A stretch of DNA of 64,000 nucleotides from IMG/VR virus record IMGVR_UViG_3300033463_000088, positions 11,081-75,080 of that record. The stretch is one strand, 5' to 3'. Made by a program: the position numbers and the translations under genes. The notes under the pieces were generated by a model. The model was given only the letters and a program-made list of their open reading frames with translations, was not told the origin of the DNA and did no database searches. Numbering within the stretch: the stretch's first letter is position 1; each line of letters starts with the position of its first letter. Source of the stretch: a virus. Its lineage: Duplodnaviria; Caudoviricetes. Positions 7,943 through 28,494 of the stretch are shown here, piece by piece.

Positions 7943-7959
7943 TATCTACACCTCATAAT

Positions 7960-8149: not shown

Positions 8150-8509
8150 TTATTCTTGCGGTAAATTAGCAAAATCTTGACATAATTGTTGATATTTTGG
8201 GCTTGCCCTTGTCTCATCAATTTTGTCTTTATAAACAGTAGGCATGTTTAGAACCCAGTCTTTACAATCTGCTAAGGAGGCAAATCTTAAGAGAGCTCCT
8301 TTGATAGGACAAGCAATCATTGGAATTGCTGTACCAGATTTGATATCAACAATTTTCCAACGAAGTTCTGGATATAAAGCTCTACCTTGCTCTTTATAAG
8401 CAAAGAGTTCATAACCAATTGCTGTTCCTGAAACTTTGACTGCTGCGTAGTGATGATCTTTTGCTTCTTCATCTCAAACACGAGTATAAATTCTAAATTC
8501 TTTTGCCAT
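8150..8509 (-). CDS. Hypothetical protein (119 aa) with in-frame TGA(Trp) at codon 12
   Basis: ATG lies 2 nt after the folD stop. MAKEFRIYTRV[TGA]DEEAKDHHY...DFANLPQE-TAA stays open for more than 100 codons past the TGA at 8474-8476. Missing from the track. Confidence 0.75.
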
Positions 8510-8511
8510 AC

Positions 8512-9297: not shown

Positions 9298-9307
9298 ACT
9301 AATCTCC

Positions 9308-9556
9308 TTACCAACTAACTATAAAATTTGGATAATCTGGCCAGGCAACATTAACATTAAAGCCTTCAGAACTAATATAATCGCTAACGTCCCAAATAAG
9401 ATATCTATTTCCATATTTATCTGGGATTCTAAAAATCATTTCTCTATTTCCGCGCTCCGCTTCCATTTTTATATAATGATGGAGCTCATCAATAAATTGT
9501 TCTCTTGTAGTTCTTGGGTCAACCCCAGCTAGTTGTCTTGCTTCTTTTGCTGTCAT
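9308..9556 (-). CDS. Hypothetical protein
   Basis: 82-aa ORF with SD, in operon. Confidence 0.7.
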   Translation of the reverse strand: MTAKEARQLAGVDPRTTREQFIDELHHYIKMEAERGNREMIFRIPDKYGNRYLIWDVSDYISSEGFNVNVAWPDYPNFIVSW

Positions 9557-9557
9557 A

Positions 9558-9701
9558 TTATTTCCTCTTTTTTTGATTATTTAGCCATTGATAAAACTCA
9601 TTTGTTGCATCTCTGCAATAAAATGAGTCTGGCTTTGCAGTACAACCACTTGCGGTTTTATATCTGCAAAAATCACATTTAGTATATCTTTTACTAACCA
9701 T
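9558..9701 (-). CDS. Small Cys-rich hypothetical protein (47 aa)
   Basis: MVSKRYTKCDFCRYKTASGCTAKPDSFYCRDATNEFYQWLNNQKKRK fills the gap between fhs and the next gene with 1-nt spacing on each side. Confidence 0.6.
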   Translation of the reverse strand: MVSKRYTKCDFCRYKTASGCTAKPDSFYCRDATNEFYQWLNNQKKRK

Positions 9702-9702
9702 A

Positions 9703-11454: not shown

Positions 11455-12032
11455 TAATAATTTTTCTCCAGTTTATCTTTATTAACATTATACCAAGAAA
11501 CAAAATCATCGAGAGAGTCAGAGCCATCTAATTGAGTTAATAATTTAACTAATAACTTTTCTGAGTCAACATGCATTGCTCTTTGACCTTCACACTTAGC
11601 TTTCCAATAATCTAATGGTGTATGAACTGTCCAAGCTTCTTTTGAATAAGCTTTACCAGCACCAACAAAGTCACAGAACATTTCAATAACTCTTTCATAA
11701 GGCATTTTAACGCACTTACAAATAATTGTAAAAGTTCCGTCGCCATTTGGCTTGGCTTCGTTGAAATCAGTCCAATATTCCCAGTGATGTAAATTACGTG
11801 CTTTGTGGTGAATCCAGCTTGGGCTATAGCCTAACTTAGCTCTTGCAATATCATGCGGGCTTTTTGTGCCATCAGCGTATTTATAAATTTCAAACTCATC
11901 TGGACTAAACTTACTTAAATCATGTTGCTCACCAAGTTCTGGAATTCCCATTTGATAACATAAATCTCTAACAACTTTAATATGATTATTTATAGTTTGA
12001 GTATGTAAGTCTCTTTTTTCTTTATCTGTCAT
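11454..12032 (-). CDS. HD-like metal-dependent phosphohydrolase (DUF5662-like), copy 1
   Basis: H...HDLSK...WIHHKARNLHHWEYW...MP..RVIEMFCD pattern. Confidence 0.7.
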   Translation of the reverse strand: MTDKEKRDLHTQTINNHIKVVRDLCYQMGIPELGEQHDLSKFSPDEFEIYKYADGTKSPHDIARAKLGYSPSWIHHKARNLHHWEYWTDFNEAKPNGDGTFTIICKCVKMPYERVIEMFCDFVGAGKAYSKEAWTVHTPLDYWKAKCEGQRAMHVDSEKLLVKLLTQLDGSDSLDDFVSWYNVNKDKLEKNY

Positions 12033-12295
12033 TATTTAGTCTCCTGTTTAACTGTAGTAGCTGTCACCATATTTTTACCTTCTTGGGTAGGCGCGATAAT
12101 AATATCATTTAAACCCTGCTCATAACAAATTTCTTTAAGTCTTTTGCACAAATTATAAACATCTTCTTTTGGCATTTTACCAACTTCAACATTTAAAATT
12201 ACTACTTCACCAGGAGTATAAGTTTTAACTACTTTTTGAATAGTCATCTTTTGAACTTCTTCTTTAATAAATTCTTTAATTTGTTTATCTGTCAT
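12032..12295 (-). CDS. Hypothetical protein
   Basis: 87-aa ORF, translationally coupled to its neighbours. Confidence 0.65.
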   Translation of the reverse strand: MTDKQIKEFIKEEVQKMTIQKVVKTYTPGEVVILNVEVGKMPKEDVYNLCKRLKEICYEQGLNDIIIAPTQEGKNMVTATTVKQETK

Positions 12296-12791
12296 TATTA
12301 AGCTCCTTTACAACAGCATTAATTTCTTCTCTTAAATCTGTATACCAAGATTTTTTAAGTCTTTGTAATCTTAATTTAATATACTCAGTTTTTTCTGCCC
12401 AATCAGGCATTCCAACAATAATTCTATTAATTCTGTCTGGCCATAAATAAGAACCAAGCTCTATATTAGTAGTAAAAGCTGGATTATCTTTATCTCTTGG
12501 AATCCAGAATACTATTCTATCTGCTACATACATAGCATTGAGCTCCCAGTCAGTTTGGTGTTTTAACTCATCTTTAGCTTCTCTATCAAAGAGTGCATTT
12601 GTTGGGCTAAATACAATACCAATATAACCGGCTTCTTCTAAATACTTAAAAGCTTCATTTCGCCAGTCATTTTCATAATTTTTTCTTGGACATGGGCCTG
12701 CTAAAAAAATTGTAGGCAGCTCAGCAAAATTATAAGCTTCTTTTAATGGGTCAGTAAAACCGTTTTTATCTTTTGGAAAAATTTTAATCAT
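12285..12791 (-). CDS. Nucleoside 2-deoxyribosyltransferase-like protein / NMP N-glycosidase
   Basis: IFLAGP...WR...VFSP...WE..AM..AD.IVFW...TTNIELG pattern. Start moved to ATG 12791, which overlaps the upstream stop. Confidence 0.75.
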   Translation of the reverse strand: MIKIFPKDKNGFTDPLKEAYNFAELPTIFLAGPCPRKNYENDWRNEAFKYLEEAGYIGIVFSPTNALFDREAKDELKHQTDWELNAMYVADRIVFWIPRDKDNPAFTTNIELGSYLWPDRINRIIVGMPDWAEKTEYIKLRLQRLKKSWYTDLREEINAVVKELNNDR

Positions 12792-12936
12792 TTGGGCTTT
12801 CAACTCTATCACCAAGTTCAAGCTCTTCCATTAAACGTTTTTCTTCAGCTTTTTCAACTGGATCGAGCTCTCTTGTTTCAGAAATACAAGCTAATTCCAT
12901 TAAACGTCTGTGAACGTATTGTTTTCTGTTTGACAT
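12784..12936 (-). CDS. Small hypothetical protein (50 aa)
   Basis: MSNRKQYVHRRLMELACISETRELDPVEKAEEKRLMEELELGDRVESPND, coupled to both neighbours. Confidence 0.6.
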   Translation of the reverse strand: MSNRKQYVHRRLMELACISETRELDPVEKAEEKRLMEELELGDRVESPND

Positions 12937-12937
12937 A

Positions 12938-13111
12938 TTAGACCCTCGCAATAACATCTTGTAAAGCTTTAATTAAATTTGTTGAATCAACATCGAGACC
13001 ATCAACTTCACTATCGGCAATAGCTTTTGCTAATGCGCCTAAAATTTGGCCTGCTTTTGTTAAAGCTTCCACTTCTTCCTTTGAAAATTCTGCAATTTTT
13101 TTGACTTCCAT
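12938..13111 (-). CDS. Small hypothetical protein (57 aa)
   Basis: MEVKKIAEFSKEEVEALTKAGQILGALAKAIADSEVDGLDVDSTNLIKALQDVIARV, with upstream AGGA SD. Confidence 0.62.
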   Translation of the reverse strand: MEVKKIAEFSKEEVEALTKAGQILGALAKAIADSEVDGLDVDSTNLIKALQDVIARV

Positions 13112-13126
13112 TTTATTTTATCCTTT

Positions 13127-13387
13127 CTATATAAATTGTAATAATACACCAATTAAAGCTGCTGCTATACAAAACATACAGGTAGTAGCAGCATTGCTTC
13201 TCATTTTAAGAGCAAGATTCAGCAATGTATCTTCGTCTTGTTCTAGTCCTTTTTCAACACAAGCATCATAAAATTCTTTAAAAGCTTTAGTAGATTTAGT
13301 AATGCTATAAGCGGAAAACCAAAAATACCCACTAACAAAGAATAAAATTACGCTTATAACAATAAGGATTACACCAATTAAATGCAT
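13127..13387 (-). CDS. Two-TM membrane protein, hypothetical
   Basis: Hydrophobic N- and C-terminal segments. Confidence 0.6.
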   Translation of the reverse strand: MHLIGVILIVISVILFFVSGYFWFSAYSITKSTKAFKEFYDACVEKGLEQDEDTLLNLALKMRSNAATTCMFCIAAALIGVLLQFI

Positions 13388-13884
13388 TCTGCGTCCTCTC
13401 TAGTCCACTCTTGTAATATTATACCATTTTTTCTGAATAATTCTATTAAAGGTCCTCGTTCAGAACATGGATTATCGGGTTTTTCATGAACCAATAGGAC
13501 TATTTTTGGTTCACCCTTATAGTGAGTTATCTTCCTAACATCTTCAGCAATGCGTTCAAACTCAGGAATTAGATAACCATTGAAGTCTATTTTATCTAAA
13601 TGTCGCCTATATGCACTTAAAAATGCACACGCAGGCCATTTATTTTGGTACTCACAAGGCCTTCCAGAACACATTTCTTCTGGAGTTTCTTCCTCTGAGA
13701 GTAAAAAACTCTCTTCTTTTATACCAATAAGTAGGTTATTTTCATTAATATACTGACGCTTTCCATTGGCTGTATTAAGCCATTTTGGAGACCAAAATGA
13801 GGTATCTATCAAAATTAAGCTGTCATCAGTCATGAAACGGATATTTTGAAAGTAGGTTATATAATATTTATTTATCATTTCCAA
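13378..13884 (-). CDS. DUF488-like protein
   Basis: N-terminal Y.TYF...P.W and C-terminal VLLVHEKPDNPCSER pattern. Confidence 0.5.
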   Translation of the reverse strand: MEMINKYYITYFQNIRFMTDDSLILIDTSFWSPKWLNTANGKRQYINENNLLIGIKEESFLLSEEETPEEMCSGRPCEYQNKWPACAFLSAYRRHLDKIDFNGYLIPEFERIAEDVRKITHYKGEPKIVLLVHEKPDNPCSERGPLIELFRKNGIILQEWTREDAECI

Positions 13885-14767
13885 ATAAACTAAAAGTCAC
13901 TTCGTCTGTTTCTAAATTTATAGAGTCAATATGAAGAAATACTCTGCCTGCTTCACGCAATCTTCGACTAAATACCTCTAATAATTCATTAAATTTATCG
14001 TTATTAATAAGATCTGCTACTTGTTCATTAACTATAAAGCTACCTGTTTTACCAGAATGCCAGTCAGAACCAATAAGTAAACTAGCATCATGAGCTTTTT
14101 GATTTTTTAACTCTTCTAAATCTTTAACTAGCTTTACATCTATACGAATAGTTTTACCATTAATGATAATATCATAGTCTGCTAATTTACCCGGGTCTCC
14201 ATTATAACAATAGGCATCAAATGGGTCGAGACCAATACAAGAAATTCCTAACTCATTACAACTATCTTCAAAGATTGTTTGTTGAATATGACTATTAAGC
14301 TTTTTTTGTAATTTACTTTCATAAGACCCTTCCCAAATAGGTGATCCCATTGTCTGTAATAATTTTCCATGACCAACAGGAAGCTTACTATATTCTTCAA
14401 TAGAGCTAATTATATTATCACAAAGAGGGCTTCTTTCATCAATCTGCCTAACACAAGTAATTTCGCCACCTATCTTTTCTGGAAGATATATGTCGAATTT
14501 AAATACAGTACCTCTAGCCTTAAAAATAATCCAAACCAAAAAAGTTTTTTGGCCATTTTCATTATAAAAAGTTCCAGCTATTATTGCTTTTTGTGATACA
14601 GCAGCATTGCCACTCATAAAAATATCTTTAGCTGCTTGCCAACCTTCTTCAGATAGTTCTTTTCTAGTATCTAATTTAGGGCATTTTGCCTTAGCTATAT
14701 GATTTTGTAGCTTCTCTATTGGCCAATTAATTTGAGCCCACTGGGGTCGTAATGTTTCTATATTCAT
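13868..14767 (-). CDS. Hypothetical protein, possible C-terminal PD-(D/E)xK nuclease
   Basis: ADYDIIINGKTIRIDVK resembles the D...(D/E)xK catalytic pattern. Confidence 0.45.
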   Translation of the reverse strand: MNIETLRPQWAQINWPIEKLQNHIAKAKCPKLDTRKELSEEGWQAAKDIFMSGNAAVSQKAIIAGTFYNENGQKTFLVWIIFKARGTVFKFDIYLPEKIGGEITCVRQIDERSPLCDNIISSIEEYSKLPVGHGKLLQTMGSPIWEGSYESKLQKKLNSHIQQTIFEDSCNELGISCIGLDPFDAYCYNGDPGKLADYDIIINGKTIRIDVKLVKDLEELKNQKAHDASLLIGSDWHSGKTGSFIVNEQVADLINNDKFNELLEVFSRRLREAGRVFLHIDSINLETDEVTFSLFGNDK

Positions 14768-14778
14768 ATTATATTATA

Positions 14779-15309
14779 CTATTTTCTATTCCAAATTTGC
14801 TGGCTAATTGAATAACCATTTGTATACGCCATTCGGCAATCTAAGCCGTCATTCTTAAAATAAGGACTTGCGGCCATACATTGCCATTCTGGCATCTCAC
14901 TGATATTAGGGAAGAAGGCAGTAGCTTCTGGGTCAATAGCGTCAACAAATGTAATATCTATTACTTGTGTGTAAGGGAGCATGCTAGCGTATAAACTCGC
15001 ACCTCCGCAAATATATACATCTTCACTAGTAGCTAGCTTTTGAATAAAATCAAGCATTTGATCAAACTTACTAAAGGTAATTGCGCCTTCTAAACAATCA
15101 ATTGAAGGAGCATCTGCCCATAAAACAACATTAACTCTATCTTTTAATGGTCTGTGTTTAAGCGACAAATATGTATTGTAACCAAATACACAGACTTTTC
15201 CAATAGTTTCACTTTTAAAATGTGCCATATCGGCGGGAATATTAAATAAAAGACCATTGGCTTTTCCAATACCAAAGTCTTTTGCACAACAAACAATAGC
15301 TTTAATCAT
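14779..15309 (-). CDS. folA: Dihydrofolate reductase
   Basis: IGKANGLLFNIPADMAHFKSET, RPLKDRVNVV, ICGGASLY and AFFP motifs. Likely start is ATG 15309 (MIKAIVC). Confidence 0.92.
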   Translation of the reverse strand: MIKAIVCCAKDFGIGKANGLLFNIPADMAHFKSETIGKVCVFGYNTYLSLKHRPLKDRVNVVLWADAPSIDCLEGAITFSKFDQMLDFIQKLATSEDVYICGGASLYASMLPYTQVIDITFVDAIDPEATAFFPNISEMPEWQCMAASPYFKNDGLDCRMAYTNGYSISQQIWNRK

Positions 15310-15688
15310 CTTTTGGGTCCTCAAAACTTAAACTTTGACTGCAAATTTTTGACCAGGGAGTTTGTCTTTTTTCAGCTGCTTCAAAAGCTTTTTGTTCAGC
15401 TTCCATCTCAATTTTCATTTGTTCATCATCTAACTCAGCTTTCGACTTATCACCCGAGCTATAACCACCTGCAAAACCACAATGCGGGCATTTCCTACCA
15501 AGTCTAATATACTTTAAAGTAGAAGTATCAGCTGGGTTTGCTTGACTATAAGCAGCTTCACTTTCTAAAGCATAAAAAGTCTTACTGCAGCAAGGACATT
15601 GAATAGTAACAATTTTTTCACCTGTTTCTATTGCTAAGTTAGTAACTTCATCTAAGTTTCTTTCTAATTCTGTCATATTATTTTCCAA
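15302..15688 (-). CDS. Zn-ribbon hypothetical protein
   Basis: CPCC and CPHC pairs. Confidence 0.65.
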   Translation of the reverse strand: MENNMTELERNLDEVTNLAIETGEKIVTIQCPCCSKTFYALESEAAYSQANPADTSTLKYIRLGRKCPHCGFAGGYSSGDKSKAELDDEQMKIEMEAEQKAFEAAEKRQTPWSKICSQSLSFEDPKDD

Positions 15689-16277
15689 TTAATTTTCTTA
15701 ATTTTTCAGCACAGTCTTCACAAATGTGTCTTGGACTTTCATGTAAACCATTATGAATACTTGTATAAATAAGCGGAATCTCAAAAATTTCTCCGCAAAT
15801 TTCACATTTAGAATAAGCTTTTACTTCTGGGTCTGCAATTTTAAGTGGTTCAGCTAAGGCGCCTTCTATTGAAATATGACCATTGTTATCCATAGTATAA
15901 GTAGCAGCACCTTCTTCAGTAATGCCTTCTTCATTAATAGAAATTGTTTCTTGTGTCCATTTAATTGGTGGTTCATATAAATCTTTATCTTCCTGACTTG
16001 GTGTTACCTGTTCATATGTGCCATCATACAGCTCATAAGTGAACATAGAGCTGCCAGTATTACAATATTTACAGTGCCAGCCATATTGTGGCGGGTAAGA
16101 AGTTAAAATTACTCCTGTATCAACAAGAGCCACTTTACCGCATTTTGGGCACTTAATATAAACTTTATTATTCACCCAAACATAATTATTAAAAGTATGA
16201 TTTTTAATATCAACTGGTTTTACTTTTAATGTAGTTTTACCATCACCGGCATCAAATATATATTCTTTATCTGTCAT
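15678..16277 (-). CDS. Multi Zn-ribbon hypothetical protein
   Basis: Four CxxC pairs (CPKC, CKYC, CEIC, CEDC). Confidence 0.65.
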   Translation of the reverse strand: MTDKEYIFDAGDGKTTLKVKPVDIKNHTFNNYVWVNNKVYIKCPKCGKVALVDTGVILTSYPPQYGWHCKYCNTGSSMFTYELYDGTYEQVTPSQEDKDLYEPPIKWTQETISINEEGITEEGAATYTMDNNGHISIEGALAEPLKIADPEVKAYSKCEICGEIFEIPLIYTSIHNGLHESPRHICEDCAEKLRKLIGK

Positions 16278-17122
16278 TATTCAGCTACCTCAAACTTTTC
16301 TTCAAGCTTAGTTGCTTGATAATTTTCTAATTCAAAGTCTTCTTCTTTGAAATCATAGAAGTCTTTGACATTTGGATTTAATTTTAATGTTGGAGCATCA
16401 TACTCTGGGTTTTCTAAGAGCTTTCTAACTACTTCAACATGTCTATCATAAATGTGTAAATTATGTACGATATGAACTAATGTTCCAACTTGATAACCAC
16501 AAACTTGGGCTAACATATGCGTTAAAATTGCATATTCCATAGTATCCCAACCGCCTGAACTTGCAGCAGCAAGTAAGTCGCCAGAACGTTGAATAAGGGT
16601 GCAGTTTAATTTACCGTCAGTTACATCCCAAAGACTTTCATAAACACATGGAGGTAAAGCCATATCATGTAAATCTTCTGGGCACCACATGGTGACGATC
16701 ATACGTCTATCCATAGGCTTATTCTTTAATAAATAAATTAAGTTATCAACTTGATCAAAATCGCCGTAAGAATAATGAGAAACCTTACCTAATTGATAAC
16801 CATAGGTCTTACCAATAGTTCCATCAGGTCTTTCCCAAGCTCTCCAAATCGCGGCGCTAGGGCCTAATTCATTAACAACGTTGGATTTCTTCTGCCACAT
16901 CCATAAAAGCTCTCTTACGACGCCTTTAAATGCTTGTTTTCTAAGTGTTAAAGCTGGAAACTCTTTTGATAAATCATATCTACGAACAACACAATGTGTT
17001 TTAATAGTATGAGCTGGTGTACCATCTTCCCAATGTGGTCTGACTTCATAGTCCTTATCATTAAAACCATTTGTTAATAATTCAATTGCTTCTGAAATAA
17101 AATATTTATCTGCTTGACTCAT
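16277..17122 (-). CDS. thyA: Thymidylate synthase-family methyltransferase (Asp at the Asn177-equivalent position)
   Basis: ELLW, RRMIV, LPPC (catalytic Cys), QRSGD and HIYDRH motifs. It has WDTMEY where ThyA normally has (F/W)N..(S/Q)Y. The family is certain; the substrate is not. Confidence 0.9.
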   Translation of the reverse strand: MSQADKYFISEAIELLTNGFNDKDYEVRPHWEDGTPAHTIKTHCVVRRYDLSKEFPALTLRKQAFKGVVRELLWMWQKKSNVVNELGPSAAIWRAWERPDGTIGKTYGYQLGKVSHYSYGDFDQVDNLIYLLKNKPMDRRMIVTMWCPEDLHDMALPPCVYESLWDVTDGKLNCTLIQRSGDLLAAASSGGWDTMEYAILTHMLAQVCGYQVGTLVHIVHNLHIYDRHVEVVRKLLENPEYDAPTLKLNPNVKDFYDFKEEDFELENYQATKLEEKFEVAE

Positions 17123-17339
17123 CAGTCTCTTCCTCCTGTATATAACGTCCTGACCATTTCCTTATCATTTCACAAAGAGTCTTAAGCTCTCCCTGTCTTT
17201 CTTTTGGCCAATCATATTTAGTAATCTTAGTAATAAGTCTATCTGCTGTGATAGATGCATAAGTATTAATATAAATTGGAAAGGGCAATTCAAACTCTTT
17301 TTGTTCAGACTCGAAAACAATTCTACTTATTTTCATCAT
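17106..17339 (-). CDS. Hypothetical protein
   Basis: 77-aa ORF overlapping both neighbours. Confidence 0.55.
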   Translation of the reverse strand: MMKISRIVFESEQKEFELPFPIYINTYASITADRLITKITKYDWPKERQGELKTLCEMIRKWSGRYIQEEETDESSR

Positions 17340-17805
17340 CTAAAGCTTTCTTCATCTTATCTAAGATGCCTTCAACTAATTTTCTTGTGTTTTCATGAAG
17401 AACCATATCTTTATGCTTTGCATACCAGTCAAAGATTTCTCTTAAATTGCCTGTCTTATGAGAAAAACTCCACCAGTCAGCAATCATTTCATAGACATAT
17501 TGTTCTGGCATTTCAAGAGCTTCTTCTGGTTCATCATCGTGTTTTAATACCCAGTATTGCCAATGATGAGGATTTGCATGAATATGATGAAGCCAAGCAT
17601 AATTAAAGGCTTTTTCTACTTCTTTTGTTCTTTTACCATAGAAATAATCATCATAAGCTTTGTATTCCTCAGCTGTATATTTAGAAACATCGTGTAAACC
17701 AAATGAAATCTTTTCTGGAATAATTTGATGTTCATATAACCAGTCTGCTGCTTTTTGAACATTAGCAACATGAGTTGTAATATAACTTGTGTATTCTTGA
17801 CTCAT
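17323..17805 (-). CDS. HD-like metal-dependent phosphohydrolase (DUF5662-like), copy 2
   Basis: H...HDVSK...AWLHHIHANPHHWQYW...MPEQYVYEMIADW; paralogous to 11454-12032. Confidence 0.72.
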   Translation of the reverse strand: MSQEYTSYITTHVANVQKAADWLYEHQIIPEKISFGLHDVSKYTAEEYKAYDDYFYGKRTKEVEKAFNYAWLHHIHANPHHWQYWVLKHDDEPEEALEMPEQYVYEMIADWWSFSHKTGNLREIFDWYAKHKDMVLHENTRKLVEGILDKMKKALDDENK

Positions 17806-17810
17806 TATTT

Positions 17811-18134
17811 TTAACCTCTCTTATCAAACATATCATCATCTTCTAATAATGCTCTAAGTAACAAAAGATAATTAATATTATCTTGGATCTTTTCTTCCCA
17901 AAGTTCTTTAGAATATTTATGCTCACTTGCCACCATATCAGCTAAACTTTTAATATGCTTATACATAAACATATATAAAGTTCTTTCTGGAGATAGTTGA
18001 GTTAAATCATTACCTTGCTTAAAGAAAGATAATCTATCTTTATCTAAATTATACTCAGTTTGTTTAACACCTAAAGTGGCTTTACACTTTTCGAGCATTT
18101 CTTCAACAATTTTATTAAATTTTTCATGTGTCAT
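17811..18134 (-). CDS. MazG-like all-alpha nucleotide pyrophosphohydrolase / nucleotide-modification-associated protein
   Basis: K..EY...D.L..F...KH..SL.D...EEKI.D.INYLLLL pattern; first gene of the nucleotide operon. Confidence 0.5.
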   Translation of the reverse strand: MTHEKFNKIVEEMLEKCKATLGVKQTEYNLDKDRLSFFKQGNDLTQLSPERTLYMFMYKHIKSLADMVASEHKYSKELWEEKIQDNINYLLLLRALLEDDDMFDKRG

Positions 18135-18151
18135 AAAATATACCTCAATAT

Positions 18152-18160
18152 ATTATACAA
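18152..18160 (-). promoter_or_regulatory. Sigma-A-type -10 element driving the nucleotide/folate operon
   Basis: TTGTATAAT followed by GAGG SD and the ATG at 18134. A second TATAAT lies at 18202-18207. Confidence 0.62.
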
Positions 18161-18227
18161 TATAAATTCTTGCCAGATTTTACTAATTTTCTTTCTAGAT
18201 TATTATACGGCGAAGGACATTACAATT

Positions 18228-18237
18228 TGCTAAATTA
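18228..18237 (+). promoter_or_regulatory. Putative late-promoter motif TGCTAAATTA
   Basis: 30 nt upstream of ATG 18268. TTGCTAAATTATACGAGA is identical to the copy upstream of ATG 38053. Confidence 0.65.
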
Positions 18238-18267
18238 TACGAGAATTATTCAAAAGGAGTAATAGGT

Positions 18268-18735
18268 ATGGCGCTTCCTCAAAAACATATTAAAACAATA
18301 AACCTTCCAAAAACTGTTGAGGGACAAACAGTTGAAGACCAATATGAAGTCGTCCCAGAGATGTTAACAAAGAATGGCTACGCTGCTGAGCTTCCTACTT
18401 TAACAGGAAACTCTACTTTAGTCATTACTTCTGACCTTGTTAATATCGAAAAAACTCCTTTAATTAGCGGAACTGCCTCCTCCAATGTTTCTTTAGACTC
18501 TCATAAAGTCTATGACTTTGGAACACTTAATCAAGCCATGACTATTACATTAACAGCAGGTCCTGCTGGTTATTGCGCGGAATATTATTTTAGATTTACT
18601 GCAGGCGCAAACGCAGCCATTACCCTTCCAAATGCCTGTGTTTATGGAGCAGGACAAGCTCCAACTCTTACTACAGGTCATACTTACGAATATAGCATTG
18701 TTGATAATTTAGTCGTAGTCGGCGAATTCTTCTAA
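18268..18735 (+). CDS. Putative virion-associated protein
   Basis: 155-aa ORF with AGGAG SD and a beta-rich C-terminus ending in Phe; first gene of the inverted cassette. Confidence 0.65.
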   Translation: MALPQKHIKTINLPKTVEGQTVEDQYEVVPEMLTKNGYAAELPTLTGNSTLVITSDLVNIEKTPLISGTASSNVSLDSHKVYDFGTLNQAMTITLTAGPAGYCAEYYFRFTAGANAAITLPNACVYGAGQAPTLTTGHTYEYSIVDNLVVVGEFF

Positions 18736-18736
18736 T

Positions 18737-21700
18737 ATGAATCTAATCAGACGTCAATTATTAAAATTAATGCCAGTGGGTCATACCCTTGAAATCATTG
18801 CTGACAGTAGTTATGTTGGCAAGGTTTTTTATTGCACTTGTAAATATGATGGTCGAGTAGTTTCTGGTTCATGGATTATTTCATATGGCGACCAATTCGC
18901 GTCTATTAATGAAAATGGTAAAGTTACTATTTATGAAGACGTTCTTGGTGAAGATATTGAAATCACCTGTACTTATGAAGATTCTATTGCCGTTGTTGAA
19001 ATTAATATTTCTTATGATAACCAATTAACTATTGAATGTGCCGACACAATTACAGGCACTTCTGGTAATGCTTTTGCAAGATATAATTCTACTGTTGTTA
19101 CTCCTACTTGGTCTATTACTTCTGGTGGTGCTTATGCTTCTATTGATGCTACAGGCGCTATCACAATTACTGATTCAGGCCAAATAACTTTACAGGCTGT
19201 GTATACAACATATACTACTACTAAAACTATTAATGTTGTATACGACGCCGGAACTACTACTGAAACAACACTTGGTGATGATGGCTCAGTTACTACAGAA
19301 ACAACTACTACAACAACTGATCCTGAAACCGGAGCTGTTACAGAAACAACTACTTCCCAAACAACAAATGAAGATGGCTCTACAAGTTCTACTTCTATTG
19401 AAACAACTACTAATGAAGATGGTTCGAGTTCAACTACTTCTACTACTACAAATTCTGATGGTTCAAGTAGTGAAACAACTTCTACTACCTCTGCTCCAGA
19501 CCCAGAAACAGGTGCTGTCACAACCGAAACTAGCACTTCTACAACAAATGCTGACGGAACAAGTAGTGAAACAACTGCAACCATAGTTGAAAATGAAGAT
19601 GGTTCAAGTGAGTCAAGTTCCGAAACTATTCACTATGATGAGAACGGCGACGTCGCAGGTTCCACCGAAAATACAACTACTGTTAATACAGATGGTTCCA
19701 GCACAAGTCAAACAAACAACTACGATGAAAACGGCGATCCGACATCAACAACAAATAATGATGTTGACGCATCTGGTAATAGTTCAACACAAGAAATTGA
19801 ATATGATGATAATGGTGATCCTGTTGTCACCGAATATACTATCGATACTTCAGGCGGCAGCGGTGATGGTAAAGAGATTGAAGATGGTATCAATACTGAA
19901 TACTATGCCTTCGACACAACTAGAGGCTTTATTTTAGACATTGACTTTGTTATTGACTTTGCTCATCAACCAGCAAACCAAAACGAAAATCACCATAATA
20001 TTTTAACTGCAAAAAGAGCAAGCCCATCTCCTTGGTATGGCTTCCAAATTAGACAATCTGGCACCAATAAATACGTCCAATTAGGTACACAATTTGCAAC
20101 AGGTAACAATACTAATACTACAATTAGCCCAATTGGTATGACTAATAATATTGCTGAATATATTTTACAAATTACTTATGATCCAACTCTTGCTTCAAAT
20201 AATTTTATTTGTCGAGATTTAAAATCAGGCAATATTGTTTTTAGCGCAAGTAATAAATTCCCGGACATTGAAGCTCTTAAATACTTAAAAGTCTGCTTAG
20301 GCTACGCGATGGATGAAAATGGTGATCCGTATAGATATTCTAATATCGCTGTTAAAAACTTCTCCCTTGTTAAGTTATCTAATGTTCTCTCACCAAGTAT
20401 TAGTAGTAATGGTCGTTATATTATTATTACTACAAATGAAACAGGTGCTACAACATATTATAGATTAAATCAATCTGGCAGTTTCCAAGAATATACTGGA
20501 CAAATTGCTATGGTTAATGATACTACTGTTGAAGCTTATTCTATGTTAGATGGCTTCACAAGTGTAACTGTCTCAGAATATTGCACTTATACTGGTCTTA
20601 AAAAACCAACTATTTCTTGTGATGGCCAGCTAGTCACTATTACTTGTGATACAGTTGGCGCATCTATTCATTATAGACTAAATCAAACTGGTGAATATAT
20701 TGTTTATAATGCTCCAATTACTATCTTTGAAGATACTATTGTTCAAGCTTATTCTGAATTAGGCGGCGACACAAGTGAAACAGTTAGAGTAGTTTGTGTT
20801 TATGATGATGCTCATAACTACGCGGAAGATTATTTAACATTTAAGATTACTTCTAACGGAACTGTTGTCTGGAAGTCTATTGGCTCAGGTATGGCTAAAA
20901 CTATTCAATATAGTTTAAATGATGGCGCTTGAACCGATTTAGCTGCAACTGGTGGTGGTGCAACTATTACAGTTTATACAGGTGATGAAATTAGATTTAA
21001 GGGCTCAAATACTGCTTATGCGAAAGATAAGTCTAACTATTCTGGTTTTACTGGTGGCACTGCTACTTTTGACATTGAAGGTAATATCATGAGTTTAATT
21101 CATGGTGATAATTTCAGTGGCGAAACAGCTTTAACTGCTACCTATGCATTCTGCTCTATATTTAAACAAGCGGCAGTTGTTAATGCTGAAAACTTAATTT
21201 TACCTGCAACTACATTGACTAATTACTGCTACAGAGCTATGTTTAGTAAATGTCCTAACTTAGTAGTTGCTCCGGCTCTTCCAGCTACTACATTAACAAC
21301 AGGTGTTTATTGGTATATGTTTGAAGAATGCCCAATTACAACTGCCCCTGTTCTTAATGCAACTACATTAACAACTGAATGTTATGGTCATATGTTTACT
21401 GGTTGCGGAAGCTTAAATTATATTAAATGTTTAGCAACAAGTATTAGTGCAAGTAAAGCTTTAGAAGGTTGGGTTACTAGTGTTGCCGGTGTCGGTACAT
21501 TTGTCAAAGCTGATGGTATTGCTTGGTCTACTGGTGTTGCAGGCATTCCTTCTGGATGGACCACTTATGTTAATGGTCAAGAGCCAGAGCCAGAAGAGCA
21601 AGATGACGTCTGGAGAATTGGGGGTCAATCAGTTACATTACCTTATTCATTAAATGCTATTGACGGCCACTCATCTGGCTATGCTAAGGGAACTTATAAC

Positions 21701-23524
21701 TTTGTTGTAACTACTACCTTAGATGCTGTTCAACCAACTTATTTACAATTTGAACATGCTGACCAATCTGCTGAAATCTATGTTAATAACTCCTTAGTTA
21801 CTACACACTGGGGCGGTTATAACTCATTCACAGTAGATATTACTAATTATATTCATTTAGGGTCAAATAAAATTCAAGTTTCTATTTGTAATACAACAAG
21901 AAATACTCTCGCCCCTTGCGCTGGTGACTTTAACTTTAACGCAACTCTCGGCGATGTCTATTTAGTCTCAGGTGCTATTTTACCTGATACTATTTACGGC
22001 TATGATGGCTTCTGGATTAGCTCAGTTGTTTCTGATGCTGCCGCAGCTGTTACTGTTAAAACTACTGTTGCAAGTGAAGCCACTGTTGTATTGACTGTCT
22101 CAGACGGAACTTATACATATACTGATAGTCAAACAGATACTGGAGATATTACATTTAACTTTACTGTTAATAACCCGCATCTCTGGAACGGAAAATCTGA
22201 CCCATATTTATATGATTTCACCTTAGAAATTTATGATGGCCAAGATTTATGTTTCACTTCTACAAGACCTTATGGCTTCAGATATTATAGTTATGTATTT
22301 AATAATACTTCTGTTATTCCAGGAGAAACATATACTGGCTTCTTACTTAACGGCGCGCCATATTTATTAAGGGGCGTTTGCATGCACCAAGACTTGGAAT
22401 ATAAAGCAAATGCTCTTACTTCTGCTGATATTGCCCATGACTTTGAAATTATTCAAGATTTAGGCTGTAATTTTATCCGAACTGCCCACTATCCGCATCC
22501 AAGAGAATTCTATGACTGATGTGATGAATTAGGCATTGTCGTTCAAACAGAAACTCCTTGGGTCAATAAAGCTCAATCTACTTACCCAACTGATTATTAT
22601 GACCACTTAGGTAGTCAAGTTAGAGACATGGTTACTCAACATTATAACCACCCATCTATTATTTTCTGGGGTTTAGCAAACGAAATTACAACTGATGATA
22701 AAACCTTCGCAAAAACAAAAATTGAAGGATATAAAGCTATTATTAATACTTATGACACTTCAAGATATGTCGGCTATGTCGTCAGCCATAGCTATCCAAA
22801 CGGCTTAGGCACATTCAATGACCCAGATGTTGACTATATTGGTCAAAACTTATATGTTGGTTGGTATATTGATACAAATACTAATAACCCATCTTCAAGA
22901 ATTAATACTTGTTTAGGTTATGCTAATAATCATAATAAACCAATGGCTTTATCTGAATACGGCTGCGGTGGAACTCAACGTTGCCACTCTGTAGACTTTA
23001 TGACAACTACTACAAGGGGCAACAATCCAAGACACGATATTGAATATAATATGTGATTACATGAAGGTCATATCGCGGCTATTAAGAATTATCCGCAACT
23101 TATCTATACATCACAATGGGTTTTATTTGATTTCGCGGTCACAAGTAGACAAGAAGGTTATACAATTTGTTTAGATGGTGAAAATACTTCTACAAATGAG
23201 GACTTAAAGAGACTAAATAATAAAGGTCTTGTTGAAAGAGATCACGTCACTAAGAAAGATACATATTATTTATATAAAGCTTGGTGAAACCCAACAAGTA
23301 AGTTCGTTCATATCTGTGGCAAAGAGTTTACACTTATTACTAGTAGACAAGTTAAATGTTATACTAATGATGGTGATACATTAGACCTCTATATTAATAA
23401 CACTTTAACTGAGACCGCTGCTGTCTCTGATAACATTGCAATATTTACAGCAAGAACATTCTCGTCTGGCGACGTTATTAAGGTCCAAGGCGCGACGGTT
23501 TACGACACTTGAACAATTGCTTAG
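18737..23524 (+). CDS. 1595-aa multidomain protein: Ig-like, Thr/Ser/Asp-rich repeat, lectin-like, Fn3-associated repeats, LRR and GH2 beta-glycosidase
   Basis: Track ORFs 18737, 21089 and 22628 share a frame and are joined only by TGA (20930, 22517, 23054, 23285, 23510); the stop is TAG 23522-24. GH2 motifs: RTAHYP, FYD[W]CDELG, NHPSIIFWGLANE, SEYG, YKAW[W]N. Confidence 0.9.
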
Positions 23525-23531
23525 ATAAAAT

Positions 23532-23559
23532 AAAAAGAGCTCAAATCGAGCTCTTTTTT
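23532..23559. terminator. Bidirectional intrinsic terminator between convergent genes
   Basis: AAAAAGAGCTC-AAATC-GAGCTCTTTTT. Confidence 0.85.
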
Positions 23560-23576
23560 AATACTTTTTATTTTAA

Positions 23577-24509
23577 TTAGGAAACAGTAACTGTTTCAGT
23601 TTTTTCTGTCTTTGTGAGTGTGACATCACCAGATGCAGAACCAGTTGAACTAATTGTAGCTTCAGTTCCTGAGAAGGTTGGTTGTGTAGAAGAAGCACTT
23701 GTAATTCCTGTAACAACTGTTGTGCTATCATATGTTGGAAGAGTAACAGAAGTTGGAGTATTAGCTTGGAAAGTATCAGCACCATGTGTAGCAGCTGTGA
23801 AACTATCAGAACCTTGTGTAAAGGAACCTTGTGTAAAGCTAATTGTTAAGACTTCACCGCTAACACTTGTTGTTAATGTTGGGGCAACAAATTGGTCTGT
23901 ACCTTGTGTAAATGAACCGCCACTAAATGTTCCGCTTGTAAATGATGCGGCAGAACCAGCACTAACAGAACCATCAGTTAATTTAGTTGGAATAGAGCTT
24001 GTTGCTGGAGTAACTGTAATTGTTGGAGTAGAAACTGTGCCAGCAGGAGTATAAGTAGCAGAAGCAGAAACAGAACCATTTGAGAATGATGCACTATCAG
24101 CAGTTGTAAATGAAACTGAACCCGAAGCACTACTCTTATATGCTAATGAACCAAGTCCTTCAAAACTAACCTCAGTATCACCTAATTTTTCCCAAACATA
24201 ACTTGGAGTAGAAGTATCACTAACATCAACTGTAACATATTCAGCATAAATTGTTTTATTATTAACTGTATGAGGAACTAAATAAATTTTACCTTGTGTA
24301 CCTGACGCAGCAACTAATGAACCAACAATATCACTTGTGCCATCATTCCAAGTAACACCATAAGGCGTTTTATTTGCAGCAGTTGATTTAACAAAAGCCA
24401 ATGTTCCAGCAGATAATTGGCTAATTAAACCTCTGGCTTCTAAGTCTTTTAAATCATAAGTATTACCATCTGGTAAAGTAATTTGTGAAATATAAACTTT
24501 GTCTGACAT
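23577..24509 (-). CDS. Putative fibre/virion protein, Ser/Thr/Gly-rich repeats
   Basis: N-terminal ISQITLPDGNTYDLKD; FTQGTD/FTQGSD and TPAGTVS repeats. Confidence 0.7.
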   Translation of the reverse strand: MSDKVYISQITLPDGNTYDLKDLEARGLISQLSAGTLAFVKSTAANKTPYGVTWNDGTSDIVGSLVAASGTQGKIYLVPHTVNNKTIYAEYVTVDVSDTSTPSYVWEKLGDTEVSFEGLGSLAYKSSASGSVSFTTADSASFSNGSVSASATYTPAGTVSTPTITVTPATSSIPTKLTDGSVSAGSAASFTSGTFSGGSFTQGTDQFVAPTLTTSVSGEVLTISFTQGSFTQGSDSFTAATHGADTFQANTPTSVTLPTYDSTTVVTGITSASSTQPTFSGTEATISSTGSASGDVTLTKTEKTETVTVS

Positions 24510-24523
24510 AATTTTTTCCTCTT

Positions 24524-25012
24524 CTACTTAGTTAGTTTTAAGTTATAAGTTCCATCTGGAAGAACTTCAACTTCCGCAGAAACTTTATTGTTCCATTTTG
24601 TTCTATCAGATGAACTGACATGAGCAGAAGTATCTGTTATATGATTTTGTAGTTCATCTTCTAAATATTGAACTGAAGAACCTTGGAATAAAATTTGTTT
24701 TGTTGTAAATTCTCCAGTATTTTTATTTATATTTAACTCTGTCATATTACAACTTTGGCCTGCGCCAGTAGTTGTTGAGTTAATATACTTATAATTATCG
24801 CCTTCAATTCTTGCTAATCTATAGAATTTTCCATCTAAATATACAACAGAATTATTAGTGGCGAATAGTTTTTCTAGGTCTTCCTCTGGAATTTGACCAG
24901 AGACATCCTCAATGTCAATAACAACATCTTTTGGCTTGCCCCCTTCAGAAGAAGCAATCTTGCCATCAGCATAGCCGCGGGCTAAGATATAAGTGGTCAT
25001 ATCTATTGCCAT
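24524..25012 (-). CDS. Hypothetical virion-region protein
   Basis: 162-aa ORF with SD. Confidence 0.65.
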   Translation of the reverse strand: MAIDMTTYILARGYADGKIASSEGGKPKDVVIDIEDVSGQIPEEDLEKLFATNNSVVYLDGKFYRLARIEGDNYKYINSTTTGAGQSCNMTELNINKNTGEFTTKQILFQGSSVQYLEDELQNHITDTSAHVSSSDRTKWNNKVSAEVEVLPDGTYNLKLTK

Positions 25013-25238: not shown

Positions 25239-25496
25239 TTACCTTGCCGCCTGAGCATTCCAAGCTCTTATCTCTGCTTGGAGGTCAGGGTCTTCTAGAG
25301 ATCTACCAGAGGCAACAGCCATATACATTTTGTTATAGAAAAGAACAGCGGCATTTGATGGGTTATTATAAATCTGATTCCAGAGTTTAGTTAACTCATC
25401 TGCATGCTTTGCTGCATTACTATACATTTGATTTCATTCTTCTTGTGTATAGTTCTTTGCTATTTGATCACGTCTAAATTCTTGACCTTCTGCCAT
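25239..25496 (-). CDS. Hypothetical protein (85 aa), TGA(Trp) at codon 21
   Basis: MAEGQEFRRDQIAKNYTQEE[W]NQMYSN... extends the track ORF. The late motif lies 20 nt upstream (25517-25526). Confidence 0.65.
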
Positions 25497-25540: not shown

Positions 25541-26479
25541 TTATATATTACATTTAACTATGTTAAAGTCTTTTAATTGGTCTTTAATTTGGTCTTCATA
25601 GTCTGAATTTATAAGTAAAAACTTTGCTCCCTTAAGACCTGAGCCAACAAGCTTCTCACCATAAACGCCATCTATTTCACAAATATGATATTCTTCTTCA
25701 AAAATATTTACTTTTAAATTAAGCATACTTTGGGTTAAGCATGCGCCCATATAAGTCTCAGTTAGACCATCTTCATTTGCCCATCAGCTTGCACAATCTA
25801 CAATACACTCTTCAAAGTGAATAAACTGACTAATTAAAGTATTTGGCTTTGCTTCTTTAATTCTTGTAACATTATCTAAAAACTTTCTGTCAGCTGAGTG
25901 ATTATGTTGTTCATTATAAATTAATAAACCAGAATAATGTTTATCATCTAATTTAATATCAGCACCTAAATCACAAGTGCTTGTATCAATTTTCCAGATA
26001 CCTGGTTCATGTAAAATAGCTTTAAAATCCATTCTGCCGCAAGGAATTTGTAAATAATTATGTTCTACCCAATAGCCAAATTTTACTATTAAATTATCAC
26101 TTAACTCTAAATTATTCCAATAACAAATAGTTTTTAAAATGGAGATAATAAAAGCAGCTGATGATGAAACACCTAAGCCACTTGGTAAATCATTAGAAAT
26201 AGTAATATCACAGCCAGTATTTAATTTTAAGTTATTTCTTGCAAAGACATTAATACAGCCATCAACATAATCAGTCCAAGTATAACTTCTTTTTGACTGC
26301 GGTTGAAGGTTTACTTCATAATATGAAAATTCTTTGGAAGTAATAGAAAGTTTTTTATCTTCTCTTTTATTACTTTCAGCTATAATATATTTATCTATTG
26401 TAGAAGTAAGAACTGGTTCATTAATACAATCAAGGTAAGCACCAGCTCAATTAATACGATATGGAACTTTAATTTGCAT
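25541..26479 (-). CDS. GHMP-family kinase, galactokinase-like (312 aa), 2 TGA
   Basis: PYRIN[W]AGAYLD (compare P.RVNLIGEHTD), LPSGLGVSSSAA, PCGRMD and GVYGEKLVGSGLKG. Joins track ORFs 25784 and 25541. Confidence 0.85.
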
Positions 26480-26485
26480 ATATTT

Positions 26486-26494
26486 ATTATACAA
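26486..26494 (-). promoter_or_regulatory. Sigma-A-type -10 element upstream of the GHMP kinase
   Basis: TTGTATAAT 6 nt before ATG 26479 with no room for an SD, so possibly a leaderless mRNA. Confidence 0.5.
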
Positions 26495-26964: not shown

Positions 26965-28494
26965 TTATTCTCCTACTTTGCTTTCTAAAACAGCTAATCT
27001 TGTTTCAAGATCTTCAATTTTTTTCTTTTGGTCTTTTAATGCAAGAAGAGCAACATAAGCTAACTTAGCATCTCAAACACCTAATTTATGCTCTACTTCT
27101 CCAGTTTCTTGGTTTGGTATTTCAGCATCTCTAATTAATGCATTACGATATCTTTCTGGTAAAGCTGCTTCTAAATCTTGTGCAATAACACCAATACCTA
27201 TATTATGGTCTTCATCTGCCTTAAAACTAAACTCTACAATCTCTAACTTATCTAATAGACTATTAGTATCTAAAGTTGTAGGAGCAATATTTTCTTTAAG
27301 GCTTCTATCAGATGACATAGCATAGTATGAATTTCAGTTATTACTGTTAAACCAGGCTTCAGAGTGCGGACCACTTGCATTCTGATAAAGCGTTCCAGTA
27401 ACAAATACATCACCTCTAATAACTACACCTGTATCATCAAAAGCATCTATAAATCTAGAGGCAACACAGCCATTTGGATAGAAGCATCAACCATAATAGT
27501 TTGCGGTATCTGCAGGATGTACTGAAGTTTGGGTACCAGGAATAAGAAGAATTGGAGCAGTCATACAAACTGGATTGCCATTTTTTGGCTGAATACCTAA
27601 GTCATTTGCAGACTCTCATAATGAACTTCCACTACTAGAAGAACCTGTAGCATCATCACGTCATGCTGGATTACCATCAGCATCAGTTTTTCAAACTTTA
27701 TATGCAGCAGATGCACCTGGCGCAGAGACATAGCCAGCTTGTGTGACTGTATTTGCATTTCAGGTATTATTGTCTGTAGAACTAATTGTTATTTCACCAT
27801 CAGCAGATTTTGTTACAGTTGTGCTACCTCCACCCTTAATACTTAAAGTAGAATTACCACTTTGATTAGCTGTAAATGAAACAGCGTCAGTAGTGCCAGC
27901 TTGAATTTTAAATGTACCATTATTAACTGTATAAGTAGAATTTTCCCATGGAACACTAACATATGCTTTACTATTTGAGTCTAATTGAACAGCATATTTT
28001 TTCGATTCACCTTCTGGTAATGTATAACCGAGTTTAATACCACCAAGTGCACTGTCGGTAGCAGCTGATAAAGAATAAGCATTTGCACTTTCTGCAATTC
28101 CGTCTAATTTTGTTTTATCAGCAGCAGACATTAGACCCGCAGCAGACTGTGTAGCATTGTTATAAGTGGTATCACTATCAGAAGGAAGAGTAATAGTTTT
28201 TGTAGAAGCAGCTGTTACACGTCCTTTAGCATCAACTGTAATATAAGGGACACTAAATGTTCCTTCATGACCTGGGCTAGCATCAGATGATGGACCATAA
28301 CTATCAGCGCCAACGCCAGAATCAGCTAATCTACTAGCATTTAAAGTTCCAGATGAAATATTACTAGCATTTAAGCCTGTTAAACCAGAGCCATTACCTA
28401 AAAGTGTTCCGCCAACAGTTAAATTACCAGATATATTTTCATCATCTGTTACTCTTAATTTACCACGAACTATTGTACTATTTAAATCAGCCAT
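26965..28494 (-). CDS. Tail fibre/spike with C-terminal S74 intramolecular chaperone (509 aa), 7 TGA
   Basis: Track ORFs 27760 and 27073 join through TGA. SDRSLKENI cleavage motif, GVIAQDL and a terminal coiled coil (KKKIEDLETRLAVLE). Confidence 0.88.

Follow-up and report, generated by a model that had tools for sequence, protein, structure and literature searches.

In this study, we analyzed a two-gene cassette in a stretch of 64,000 nucleotides from a virus of the class Caudoviricetes (IMG/VR record IMGVR_UViG_3300033463_000088). This stretch, referred to below as the window, comprises positions 11081 to 75080 of a 75,080-bp linear viral contig (CheckV completeness, 33%). The cassette encodes a small partner protein, P0002, and a 1,595-amino-acid (aa) multidomain protein, P0001, which ends in a glycoside hydrolase family 2 (GH2) enzyme. 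Our results point to an intact gene in which TGA codons specify tryptophan, to a predicted exo-acting beta-hexuronidase and, plausibly but at about even odds (probability, 0.5), to display of P0001 on the phage particle. The cassette has the following features.

18228 to 18237, plus strand: late-gene motif TGCTAAATTA, 31 nucleotides (nt) upstream of the ATG at 18268
18268 to 18735, plus strand: gene for the 155-aa partner, P0002, with a strong AAGGAG ribosome-binding site and a stop 1 nt ahead of the P0001 ATG
18737 to 23524, plus strand: gene for the 1,595-aa multidomain protein, P0001, full length only with TGA read as Trp
23532 to 23558, both strands: bidirectional intrinsic terminator with an 11- to 12-bp stem, an A-run upstream and a T-run downstream, scored on both strands

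An earlier note on this DNA, made from the letters alone, had described the cassette as the sole plus-strand unit, with a late motif of its own and a bidirectional terminator, and all three features were confirmed. Elsewhere on the whole 75-kb contig, every open reading frame (ORF) of at least 150 aa lies on the minus strand, with the exception of P0002 and of frames nested in larger genes. The motif TGCTAAATTA occurs in seven exact copies in the window, compared with 0.77 expected, and every copy is in gene sense; six of the seven lie on the minus strand in the recoded late region, five of these just upstream of late genes. The terminator hairpin, which was called on both strands, is located between the GH2 gene and a convergent 310-aa late gene (23577 to 24509). 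The 155-aa gene at 18268 to 18735 falls within the stretch covered by the earlier note, yet it went unmentioned there. Our favored explanation is that the two genes form a late operon in a code-4 phage with a genome of roughly 220 to 240 kb.

Early genes in the window have TGTATAATAT-like extended -10 boxes upstream (for example, at 18137 to 18166 on the minus strand), and the two promoter classes follow the two coding regimes, with TGTATAATAT-like boxes serving early genes and TGCTAAATTA serving recoded genes. One copy of TGCTAAATTA (38085 to 38094, minus strand) overlaps the predicted TTG start of the ORF at 35003 to 38095, the true start of which is probably an ATG 14 codons further in.

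Under translation table 4, positions 18737 to 23524 of the plus strand constitute a single open frame of 1,595 aa with five in-frame TGA codons; under table 11, the same stretch is left as pieces of 731, 476, and 142 aa and smaller, and standard annotation does therefore break the gene, as had been anticipated. The recoding can be compared with that of a complete relative of 237,392 bp (G001; CheckV completeness, 100%), found via P0002, whose cassette consists of a 194-aa partner followed by a 1,596-aa protein with 12 in-frame TGA codons and 70% identity to P0001 along its entire length. Conservation within the enzyme was read from an alignment, A1, of the GH2 domain of P0001 with those of 14 database homologues (15 sequences). 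The five TGA codons are as follows.

20930 to 20932, plus strand: TGA encoding Trp732; TGA also at the homologous site in G001
22517 to 22519, plus strand: TGA encoding Trp1261; a column that is Trp in most homologues and Met in G001
23054 to 23056, plus strand: TGA encoding Trp1440; an invariant Trp column across the 15 sequences, with TGA in G001 too
23285 to 23287, plus strand: TGA encoding Trp1517; an invariant Trp column, with TGA in G001 too
23510 to 23512, plus strand: TGA encoding Trp1592; Trp in one homologue, Phe or Leu in the others, and His in G001

Two of the four TGA codons of the GH2 domain are located on invariant Trp columns of A1. There are 22 Trp codons in P0001 (17 TGG and 5 TGA); three TGA sites are held in common with the G001 orthologue, and in seven other places a Trp encoded by TGG in the window is encoded by TGA in G001. 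There are no frameshifts, and all five table 11 interruptions of P0001 are TGA codons. On this evidence of codon placement and alignment, TGA is read as Trp in P0001, the product of which is intact and conserved; the earlier proposal of an intact, recoded code-4 gene is therefore upheld.

In-frame TGA is absent from 19 of the 20 replication-block genes of at least 100 aa, and in late genes it makes up as much as about half of the Trp codons. Early-block ORFs end at the same positions with either table, 4 or 11, so that no early-block gene stops at TGA. This late-gene pattern of recoding was previously described for code-4 phages (bioRxiv 10.1101/2021.08.26.457843). In the Jade and Agate code-4 gut phages, as in the window, TGA is concentrated in structural and late genes, with none in replication genes (bioRxiv 10.1101/2021.08.26.457843), and these phages further resemble the lineage of the window in having genomes of about 220 to 240 kb and a recoding density that differs between close relatives. 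The likeness is one of recoding pattern and size. In the 75 kb that includes the window, no gene for a suppressor tRNA, a tryptophanyl-tRNA synthetase, or release factor 1 was seen.

The C-terminal part of P0001 is a complete GH2 enzyme with the following features.

21590 to 23464, plus strand: complete GH2, aa 952 to 1576, comprising a jelly roll, an Ig-like domain, a TIM barrel, and C-terminal domains
22682 to 22684, plus strand: Glu1316, acid/base, in an ANE motif that aligns to the NE of 7kgz and 6mvg; invariant in A1
22955 to 22957, plus strand: Glu1407, nucleophile, in an SEYG motif that aligns to 7kgz and 6mvg; invariant in A1
23216 to 23224, plus strand: Asn1494-Asn1495-Lys1496, an NxK motif that aligns to the NqKG and NhKG of solved glucuronidases; N and K invariant in A1

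At about aa 988 to 1410, the Pfam models for GH2_N (PF02837/PF22666), GH2 (PF00703), and GH2_C (PF02836) all matched above their gathering scores, and in a phmmer search of the PDB, aa 952 to 1576 aligned with the gut GH2 chains 7kgz, 6mvg, 6mvh, and 8ges at E values of about 1e-67. Together with the invariance of Glu1316 and Glu1407, these matches bear out the catalytically complete GH2 that had been proposed. The NxK motif, located in loop 8, holds the C6 carboxylate and separates GH2 beta-hexuronidases from beta-galactosidases (PMC12243196, PMC10162664). Judged by its motifs, the GH2 of P0001 has every catalytic hallmark of an exo-acting beta-hexuronidase, and we predict that it is an exo-enzyme of the beta-glucuronidase or beta-galacturonidase type. 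The No-Loop/FMN-type gut GH2 beta-glucuronidases (7kgz, 6mvg, 6mvh, and 6mvf) have the same domain order as P0001 over ~620 residues, and with these enzymes and with LacZ4, both catalytic Glu residues, the NxK motif, and the C-terminal domains can be aligned; however, P0001 has low identity to the gut glucuronidases, and its GH2 is fused behind ~950 residues of binding modules, which are listed here with the N-terminal module and the linker.

18737 to 19261, plus strand: N-terminal module, aa 1 to 175, possibly two putative Ig-like domains, without a Pfam match
19244 to 19936, plus strand: low-complexity linker, aa 170 to 400 (T, 27%; S, 15%; D, E, and G, 10% each)
19919 to 20380, plus strand: concanavalin-A/LamG-like lectin jelly roll, aa 395 to 548 (model matches, Z 8 to 10.6)
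20384 to 20800, plus strand: two CHB_HEX_C/Fn3-associated beta-sandwich repeats, aa ~550 to 688 (PF13290, E 1.8e-6; PF13287, E 7e-4; 9joq, Z 9.1, root mean square deviation 1.8)
20819 to 21583, plus strand: beta-sandwich and BspA/TpLRR-type leucine-rich repeat (LRR), aa ~695 to 949 (structure matches, conserved in 40 homologues)

A structure model of aa 395 to 960 was built from 40 homologues and had a mean predicted local distance difference test (pLDDT) score of 88. Its lectin part (model residues 1 to 154) matched a domain of the Akkermansia mucin-glycan enzyme 8ayr, the title of which names sialidases and fucosidases, as well as PL7 lyases, galectins, and LG domains, and its LRR matched PcpA, BACOVA_04585, TpLRR, and EUBVEN_01088 with Z values of about 9 over 157 to 179 residues. 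Foldseek, run with the four-domain model, returned generic tandem-sandwich proteins only; the per-domain picture stems from a wider structure search. Pfam yielded nothing for aa 1 to 175, the lectin domain, the LRR (PF13306 was not matched on aa 700 to 950), or P0002. There is no beta-helix in the model of aa 395 to 960, and the catalytic part is the GH2 TIM barrel. The lectin-like and LRR modules that the earlier note had seen fused ahead of the enzyme are thus supported by the model, whereas the Ig-like character that it had assigned to aa 1 to 175 is without Pfam confirmation.

The same cassette in G001 is convergent with homologues of the window genes at 23577 to 24509, 24524 to 25012, and 25239 to 25496, and the G001 copy keeps both catalytic Glu residues and the NxK motif. 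The notion of a cassette unique to the window in its inversion was therefore not sustained: the cassette recurs in G001, and its GH2 family is widespread in large rumen phages and bacteria.

Homologues of P0002 numbered 16, one of them on a 257.6-kb contig, and in each of the four phage contigs examined the P0002 homologue is directly followed by an Ig/lectin protein. On one strand of a 130-kb contig (L197) are found homologues of the 162-aa and 310-aa neighbors of the cassette, the partner, and a 485-aa protein that matches only residues 4 to 547 of P0001, that is, the N-terminal module, the spacer, and the lectin; in L195, the partner is again followed by a P0001-type N terminus. The N-terminal 175 aa recur at 45 to 75% identity in 90 proteins of 450 to 1,130 aa, mostly 480 to 660 aa, although some of these may be table 11 truncations; among the 90, some of 1,030 to 1,130 aa have CHB_HEX_C, and several are encoded on contigs of >200 kb. 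The N-terminal module is also present in the viral GH2 giants L004, L022, and L023, which, like L018, share the N-terminal 700 residues of P0001. A profile hidden Markov model of the partner detected nothing resembling P0002 within the longer GH2 giants of viruses, and P0002 is therefore not simply their split-off N terminus. The simplest reading of these arrangements is that an older, shorter late gene (N-terminal module, spacer, and lectin) stood with the partner, that the sandwich/LRR/GH2 block was added in the lineage of the window, and that in this lineage the pair became inverted against the end of the late operon.

Database searches returned 2,814 relatives of the GH2 domain at E values up to 1e-10, the top ones being 55 to 91% identical and 500 to 1,130 aa long, some of them with BACON, CHB_HEX_C, Fn3_assoc, or Big_2 domains; the closest were P0005, at 91% identity, and P0006 to P0009, at about 70%. 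A megablast search of 18000 to 24000 against phage records gave no match, nor did a scan of viral contigs with the single GH2-domain sequence. The alignment-based scan succeeded and found a family GH2 on 29 viral contigs, 26 of which were tabulated. These 26 contigs are 31 to 435 kb in length, their ~20-kb loci have a GC content of about 27 to 40%, and their GH2 domains are 52 to 63% identical to that of P0001; in 25 of the 26, the match is uninterrupted in the standard code, within open frames of about 700 to 2,070 aa. On a 102-kb viral contig (L027, positions 9890 to 11884, plus strand), the family GH2 is broken by two in-frame TAG codons and no TGA, an arrangement which suggests that a TAG-recoded (code 15) phage may carry the family GH2 too.

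In reference genomes, the alignment-based scan found 551 places. The best ~30 (56 to 63% identity) belong to ruminant-gut metagenome-assembled genomes (MAGs) labelled Bacteroidales, Kiritimatiellae, Lentisphaerae, or Verrucomicrobia, and below these, at an identity of 38% or less, are ordinary Bacteroidota and Bacillota GH2 enzymes. Family proteins are 1,000 to 2,500 aa long and have a common grammar of sandwich, LRR, CHB_HEX_C, and GH2; wherever the GH2 occurs in the family, the sandwich and LRR module goes with it. A maximum-likelihood tree (quick search, LG+G4; fragments with <520 aligned residues and L027 left out) placed the GH2 domains of the giant proteins in a single clade with a long stem (branch length, 1.17; support, 100), within which viral and genome-derived rows were interleaved, with at least seven label changes forced by well-supported branches. 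Nearest the base of the clade, as rooted by other GH2 enzymes, were the window copy, three database proteins, and the pair L002/P0008. The module set that includes sandwich, LRR, and GH2 may have been exchanged repeatedly between bacteria of the rumen and its large phages.

The secreted giants of rumen MAGs (L031 to L061) resemble P0001 in their GH2 identity of 56 to 63% and in the same sandwich/LRR/CHB_HEX_C order before the GH2; however, they mostly have signal peptides, their N-terminal regions are different, they use the standard code, and they often carry a C-terminal extension of ~450 aa. A classical signal peptide was present in all 10 MAG-derived copies that were tabulated (L031, L032, L033, L034, L037, L040, L042, L044, L054, and L056), the loci of which have a GC content of 43 to 61%. 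The viral GH2 giants, including P0001, are without one; the earlier observation that P0001 has no obvious signal peptide was thus correct, and its bacterial homologues do have one. L041 and L047 are further genome-derived copies, neither of which shows an obvious signal peptide; L047 has a viral-type N terminus and groups with viral rows. Where they were checked (L033, L044, and L054), the MAG neighbors are housekeeping genes, namely, arginine decarboxylase, alkaline phosphatase, S-adenosylmethionine synthetase, ClpX, GH20, and sialidase. In the viral loci checked, the neighbors are phage structural genes: the 1,945-aa GH2 gene of L004 (a 244,784-bp contig) is located between portal (phrog_213, E 2e-55) and major head (phrog_138, E 2e-65) genes, and in L008 and L022, tail-fibre-like genes adjoin the GH2 giant. 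The arrangement in L004 (positions 1 to 15867) raises the possibility of a head-associated rather than a tail-associated location.

Two side observations concern these family members. Some MAG contigs are in fact viral contigs: ONIZ01000001.1 (L057; 'uncultured Firmicutes bacterium RUG343'; 410,106 bp) agrees with the IMG/VR record L022 in length and hit coordinates and has an identical GH2 sequence, and the recurring contigs of ~410 to 413 kb suggest complete huge-phage genomes that were binned into bacterial MAGs. In addition, the N termini of L003, L005, L011, L013, L018, L022, and L047 contain one or two short K-x-N/D-G-x-W repeats, a motif that is absent from the protein of the window and from the bacterial copies; these repeats may be another way of anchoring the protein.

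Taken as a component of the particle, P0001 could act as follows. Because it has no signal peptide, it would presumably stay in the cytoplasm until assembly or lysis. It would project from the particle like a long fibre, attached via its N-terminal module and the 155-aa partner, and the 230-residue Ser/Thr-rich spacer would hold out the lectin, beta-sandwich, and LRR modules, which would bind surface glycans. The distal GH2 could then remove terminal beta-linked uronic acids from the envelope or capsule polysaccharide of the host or from decoy glycans of the rumen, thereby exposing the true receptor or releasing particles that are bound unproductively. An older, shorter fibre gene would have acquired the sandwich/LRR/GH2 block. 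The mucin target suggested in the earlier note is unsupported, because the setting looks ruminal and because the NxK motif points to beta-linked hexuronic acids, not galactose or mannose.

The virion display that the earlier note had proposed is indirectly favored by the late signals and recoding, by the missing signal peptide, by the combination of a conserved N terminus and partner with variable C termini, by the location of the L004 copy between portal and major head genes and of the L008 and L022 copies next to tail-fibre-like genes, and by the late genes around the cassette, which encode giant adhesin-like proteins and a tail fibre. The structure model of P0002 (pLDDT, 77 overall and >90 for residues 62 to 155) matched the Pa223 capsid spike, the baseplate of the Klebsiella phage KP1, the N terminus of CBA120 TSP4, T4 gp9, and a T4 baseplate chain, and its predicted fold may thus weakly resemble phage spike and baseplate adaptor domains. 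In the Atlas, a phage tail fibre C-terminal cluster was among the nearest feature neighbors of P0002, which serves as a lead only.

Several observations weigh against our favored explanation. Neither P0001 nor P0002 matched a PHROG family, tail families included, at E values up to 0.01, and the structure matches of P0002 had Z values of 5.0 to 6.8 over 82 to 93 aligned residues, where a Z below 8 may reflect a common fold alone. Both cassette genes are missing from a second complete relative (G002; 223,464 bp, with direct terminal repeats). In L113, L114, and L119, what precedes the conserved 107-aa, 160-aa, and ThyA genes is a set of late genes on the same strand, without a cassette of this kind; part of the lineage has thus conserved the cassette, which is dispensable. 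The accessory modules are also found in the secreted bacterial homologues, so that the modules alone do not imply a virion location. GH2 glucuronidases are usually dimers or tetramers, which is a poor fit with the usual trimeric fibre. ARAGORN detected no tRNA, and thus no suppressor tRNA, in the window or in the 75-kb contig, which is 33% complete by CheckV. Finally, no NCBIfam equivalog was reached (the best, NF050095, beta-glucuronidase LacZ4, scored 274 bits against a cutoff of 950), and PRK10150 scored 139 bits against a cutoff of 544; since no curated equivalog was reached, the enzyme type given here is a prediction and the substrate is left unnamed.

The foremost rival explanation, which we regard as possible but clearly the less probable, is that P0001 is a late, nonstructural enzyme that is freed at lysis and trims capsule, biofilm matrix, debris, or plant glycans. 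It would then be an auxiliary enzyme and not a particle component, and would aid the dispersal of progeny or the avoidance of adsorption to debris. The missing signal peptide and the late recoding fit this explanation as well, the nonphage enzymes nearest to it are secreted by bacteria and share its accessory modules, and both the absence of a PHROG tail family match and the dispensability of the cassette in G002 are to be expected from it. It also accords with the glycoside hydrolase auxiliary genes carried by rumen viromes (PMC10465536). However, the N-terminal module and the partner are conserved while the C termini vary, as in fibres; in other phages the gene is located inside head or tail gene clusters; and the fold of the partner leans towards virion adaptor domains.

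It is improbable that the GH2 is catalytically idle and serves only as the glycan-binding head of a fibre. Phage receptor-binding proteins do often reuse enzyme folds for binding; however, neither the catalytic Glu residues nor the NxK motif nor the motifs around the active site vary within the clade of viral and bacterial proteins, and all are kept in the 70%-identical G001 copy; binding by itself would not call for such conservation. A pseudogene, or an assembly chimera of bacterial GH2 DNA with a phage contig, could be suspected from the five table 11 stops, the inverted strand, a GC skew shift at 18 to 24 kb, and the bacterial origin of the closest nonviral relatives, but has a negligible chance of being correct: all the interruptions are TGA codons, there are no frameshifts, TGA sites fall on conserved Trp positions, the promoter motif and terminator are phage-like, the GC content of the cassette is 36% compared with 33% in its surroundings while that of the MAG loci with signal peptides is 43 to 61%, and the same cassette with its right-hand neighbors is present in the independently assembled 237-kb G001, where the exchange of TGG and TGA at homologous Trp sites rules out a pseudogene or chimeric join.

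If P0001 is displayed on the particle, its organization is reminiscent of that of tail fibres and tailspikes such as the CBA120 tailspike proteins (TSPs), the K1F endosialidase, and the P22 tailspike, which similarly combine a conserved N terminus with exchangeable distal modules, a distal enzyme, and late expression; the likeness may extend to the small partner, the modeled fold of which resembles the adaptor domains of TSP4 and gp9. Unlike the tailspike depolymerases, P0001 has a TIM-barrel exo-glycosidase and not a beta-helix endo-enzyme, and it belongs to no PHROG tail family. Gp255 of a jumbo phage, which was shown by proteomics to be in the particle, is likewise a phage glycoside hydrolase; however, this small muramidase belongs to GH25 and attacks the cell wall, whereas P0001 is a multidomain protein of about 1,600 residues with a GH2 exo-glycosidase.

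To our knowledge, most of the glycan enzymes described from virions are either beta-helix depolymerases of the endo-acting kind or small muramidases. A literature search, of incomplete coverage, found no report of a GH2 on phage structural or fibre-like proteins, nor of the giant GH2 family. Late-gene TGA recoding, glycoside hydrolase auxiliary genes in rumen phages, and structural hydrolases in jumbo phages were already known; what is unusual here is that the catalytic domain is an exo-acting TIM barrel, that the protein is so large, and that the family is spread so widely across phages and bacteria. Standard annotation misses the gene on account of its TGA codons. On particles, P0001 would be a bacterial-virus counterpart of receptor-destroying enzymes, active on uronic-acid-capped glycans, and the family would clearly exemplify how phages and bacteria of the rumen exchange whole multidomain genes for carbohydrate-active proteins. 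P0001 could also serve as a test protein for code-4 translation, via peptides that span the TGA-encoded Trp residues.

A broader proposal, which we put forward as doubtful, is that the exo-hexuronidase clade arose on large rumen phages, or was captured early by them, as a fibre-head on particles and was passed repeatedly to and from Bacteroidales, Kiritimatiellota, and Verrucomicrobiota. Should this be true, phages would be the vehicle that spreads a whole multimodule glycan-degrading gene through the rumen community.

The surroundings of the cassette are those of a phage genome with separate early and late blocks. Positions 1 to 18134 of the window encode a DNA polymerase, a single-stranded DNA-binding protein, a primase, a helicase, and a ThyA homologue. 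Giant adhesin-like proteins are encoded at 25541 to 60359, and the products of the late block include a 1,211-aa Cthe_2159 protein, a 920-aa Big_13 protein, an 899-aa LamG protein, and a 509-aa tail fibre with an S74 chaperone domain (26965 to 28494). Next to the cassette is the following pair.

23577 to 25012, minus strand: conserved neighbor genes for 310-aa and 162-aa proteins, where the late block ends, homologues of which flank the cassette in G001 and L197

For the 162-aa neighbor, a weak match with a PHROG tail protein was obtained. The window is rich in AAGGAG-type ribosome-binding sites, which argues against a Bacteroidota host.

Three late genes merit separate mention. At 46582 to 53745 on the minus strand, one frame of 2,387 aa with five TGA codons encodes four BspA-type LRR_5 stretches and a Listeria-Bacteroides repeat; relatives of parts of this protein (27 to 41% identity) adjoin GH2 giants in L008, L009, L011, L012, L014, L017, and L023. 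A crAss-like phage with this 2,387-aa product as its virion RNA polymerase was considered and dropped, the protein being a BspA-type LRR protein and the relatives being genomes of 223 to 237 kb. A 1,168-aa late protein (41575 to 45081, minus strand), with 15 in-frame TGA codons, has a CotH kinase domain (PF08757, E 1e-58), an odd cargo for a phage fibre block. A GHMP-kinase N-terminal domain is found in a 317-aa protein with two TGA codons (25541 to 26494, minus strand), which is encoded where the late block borders on its surroundings.

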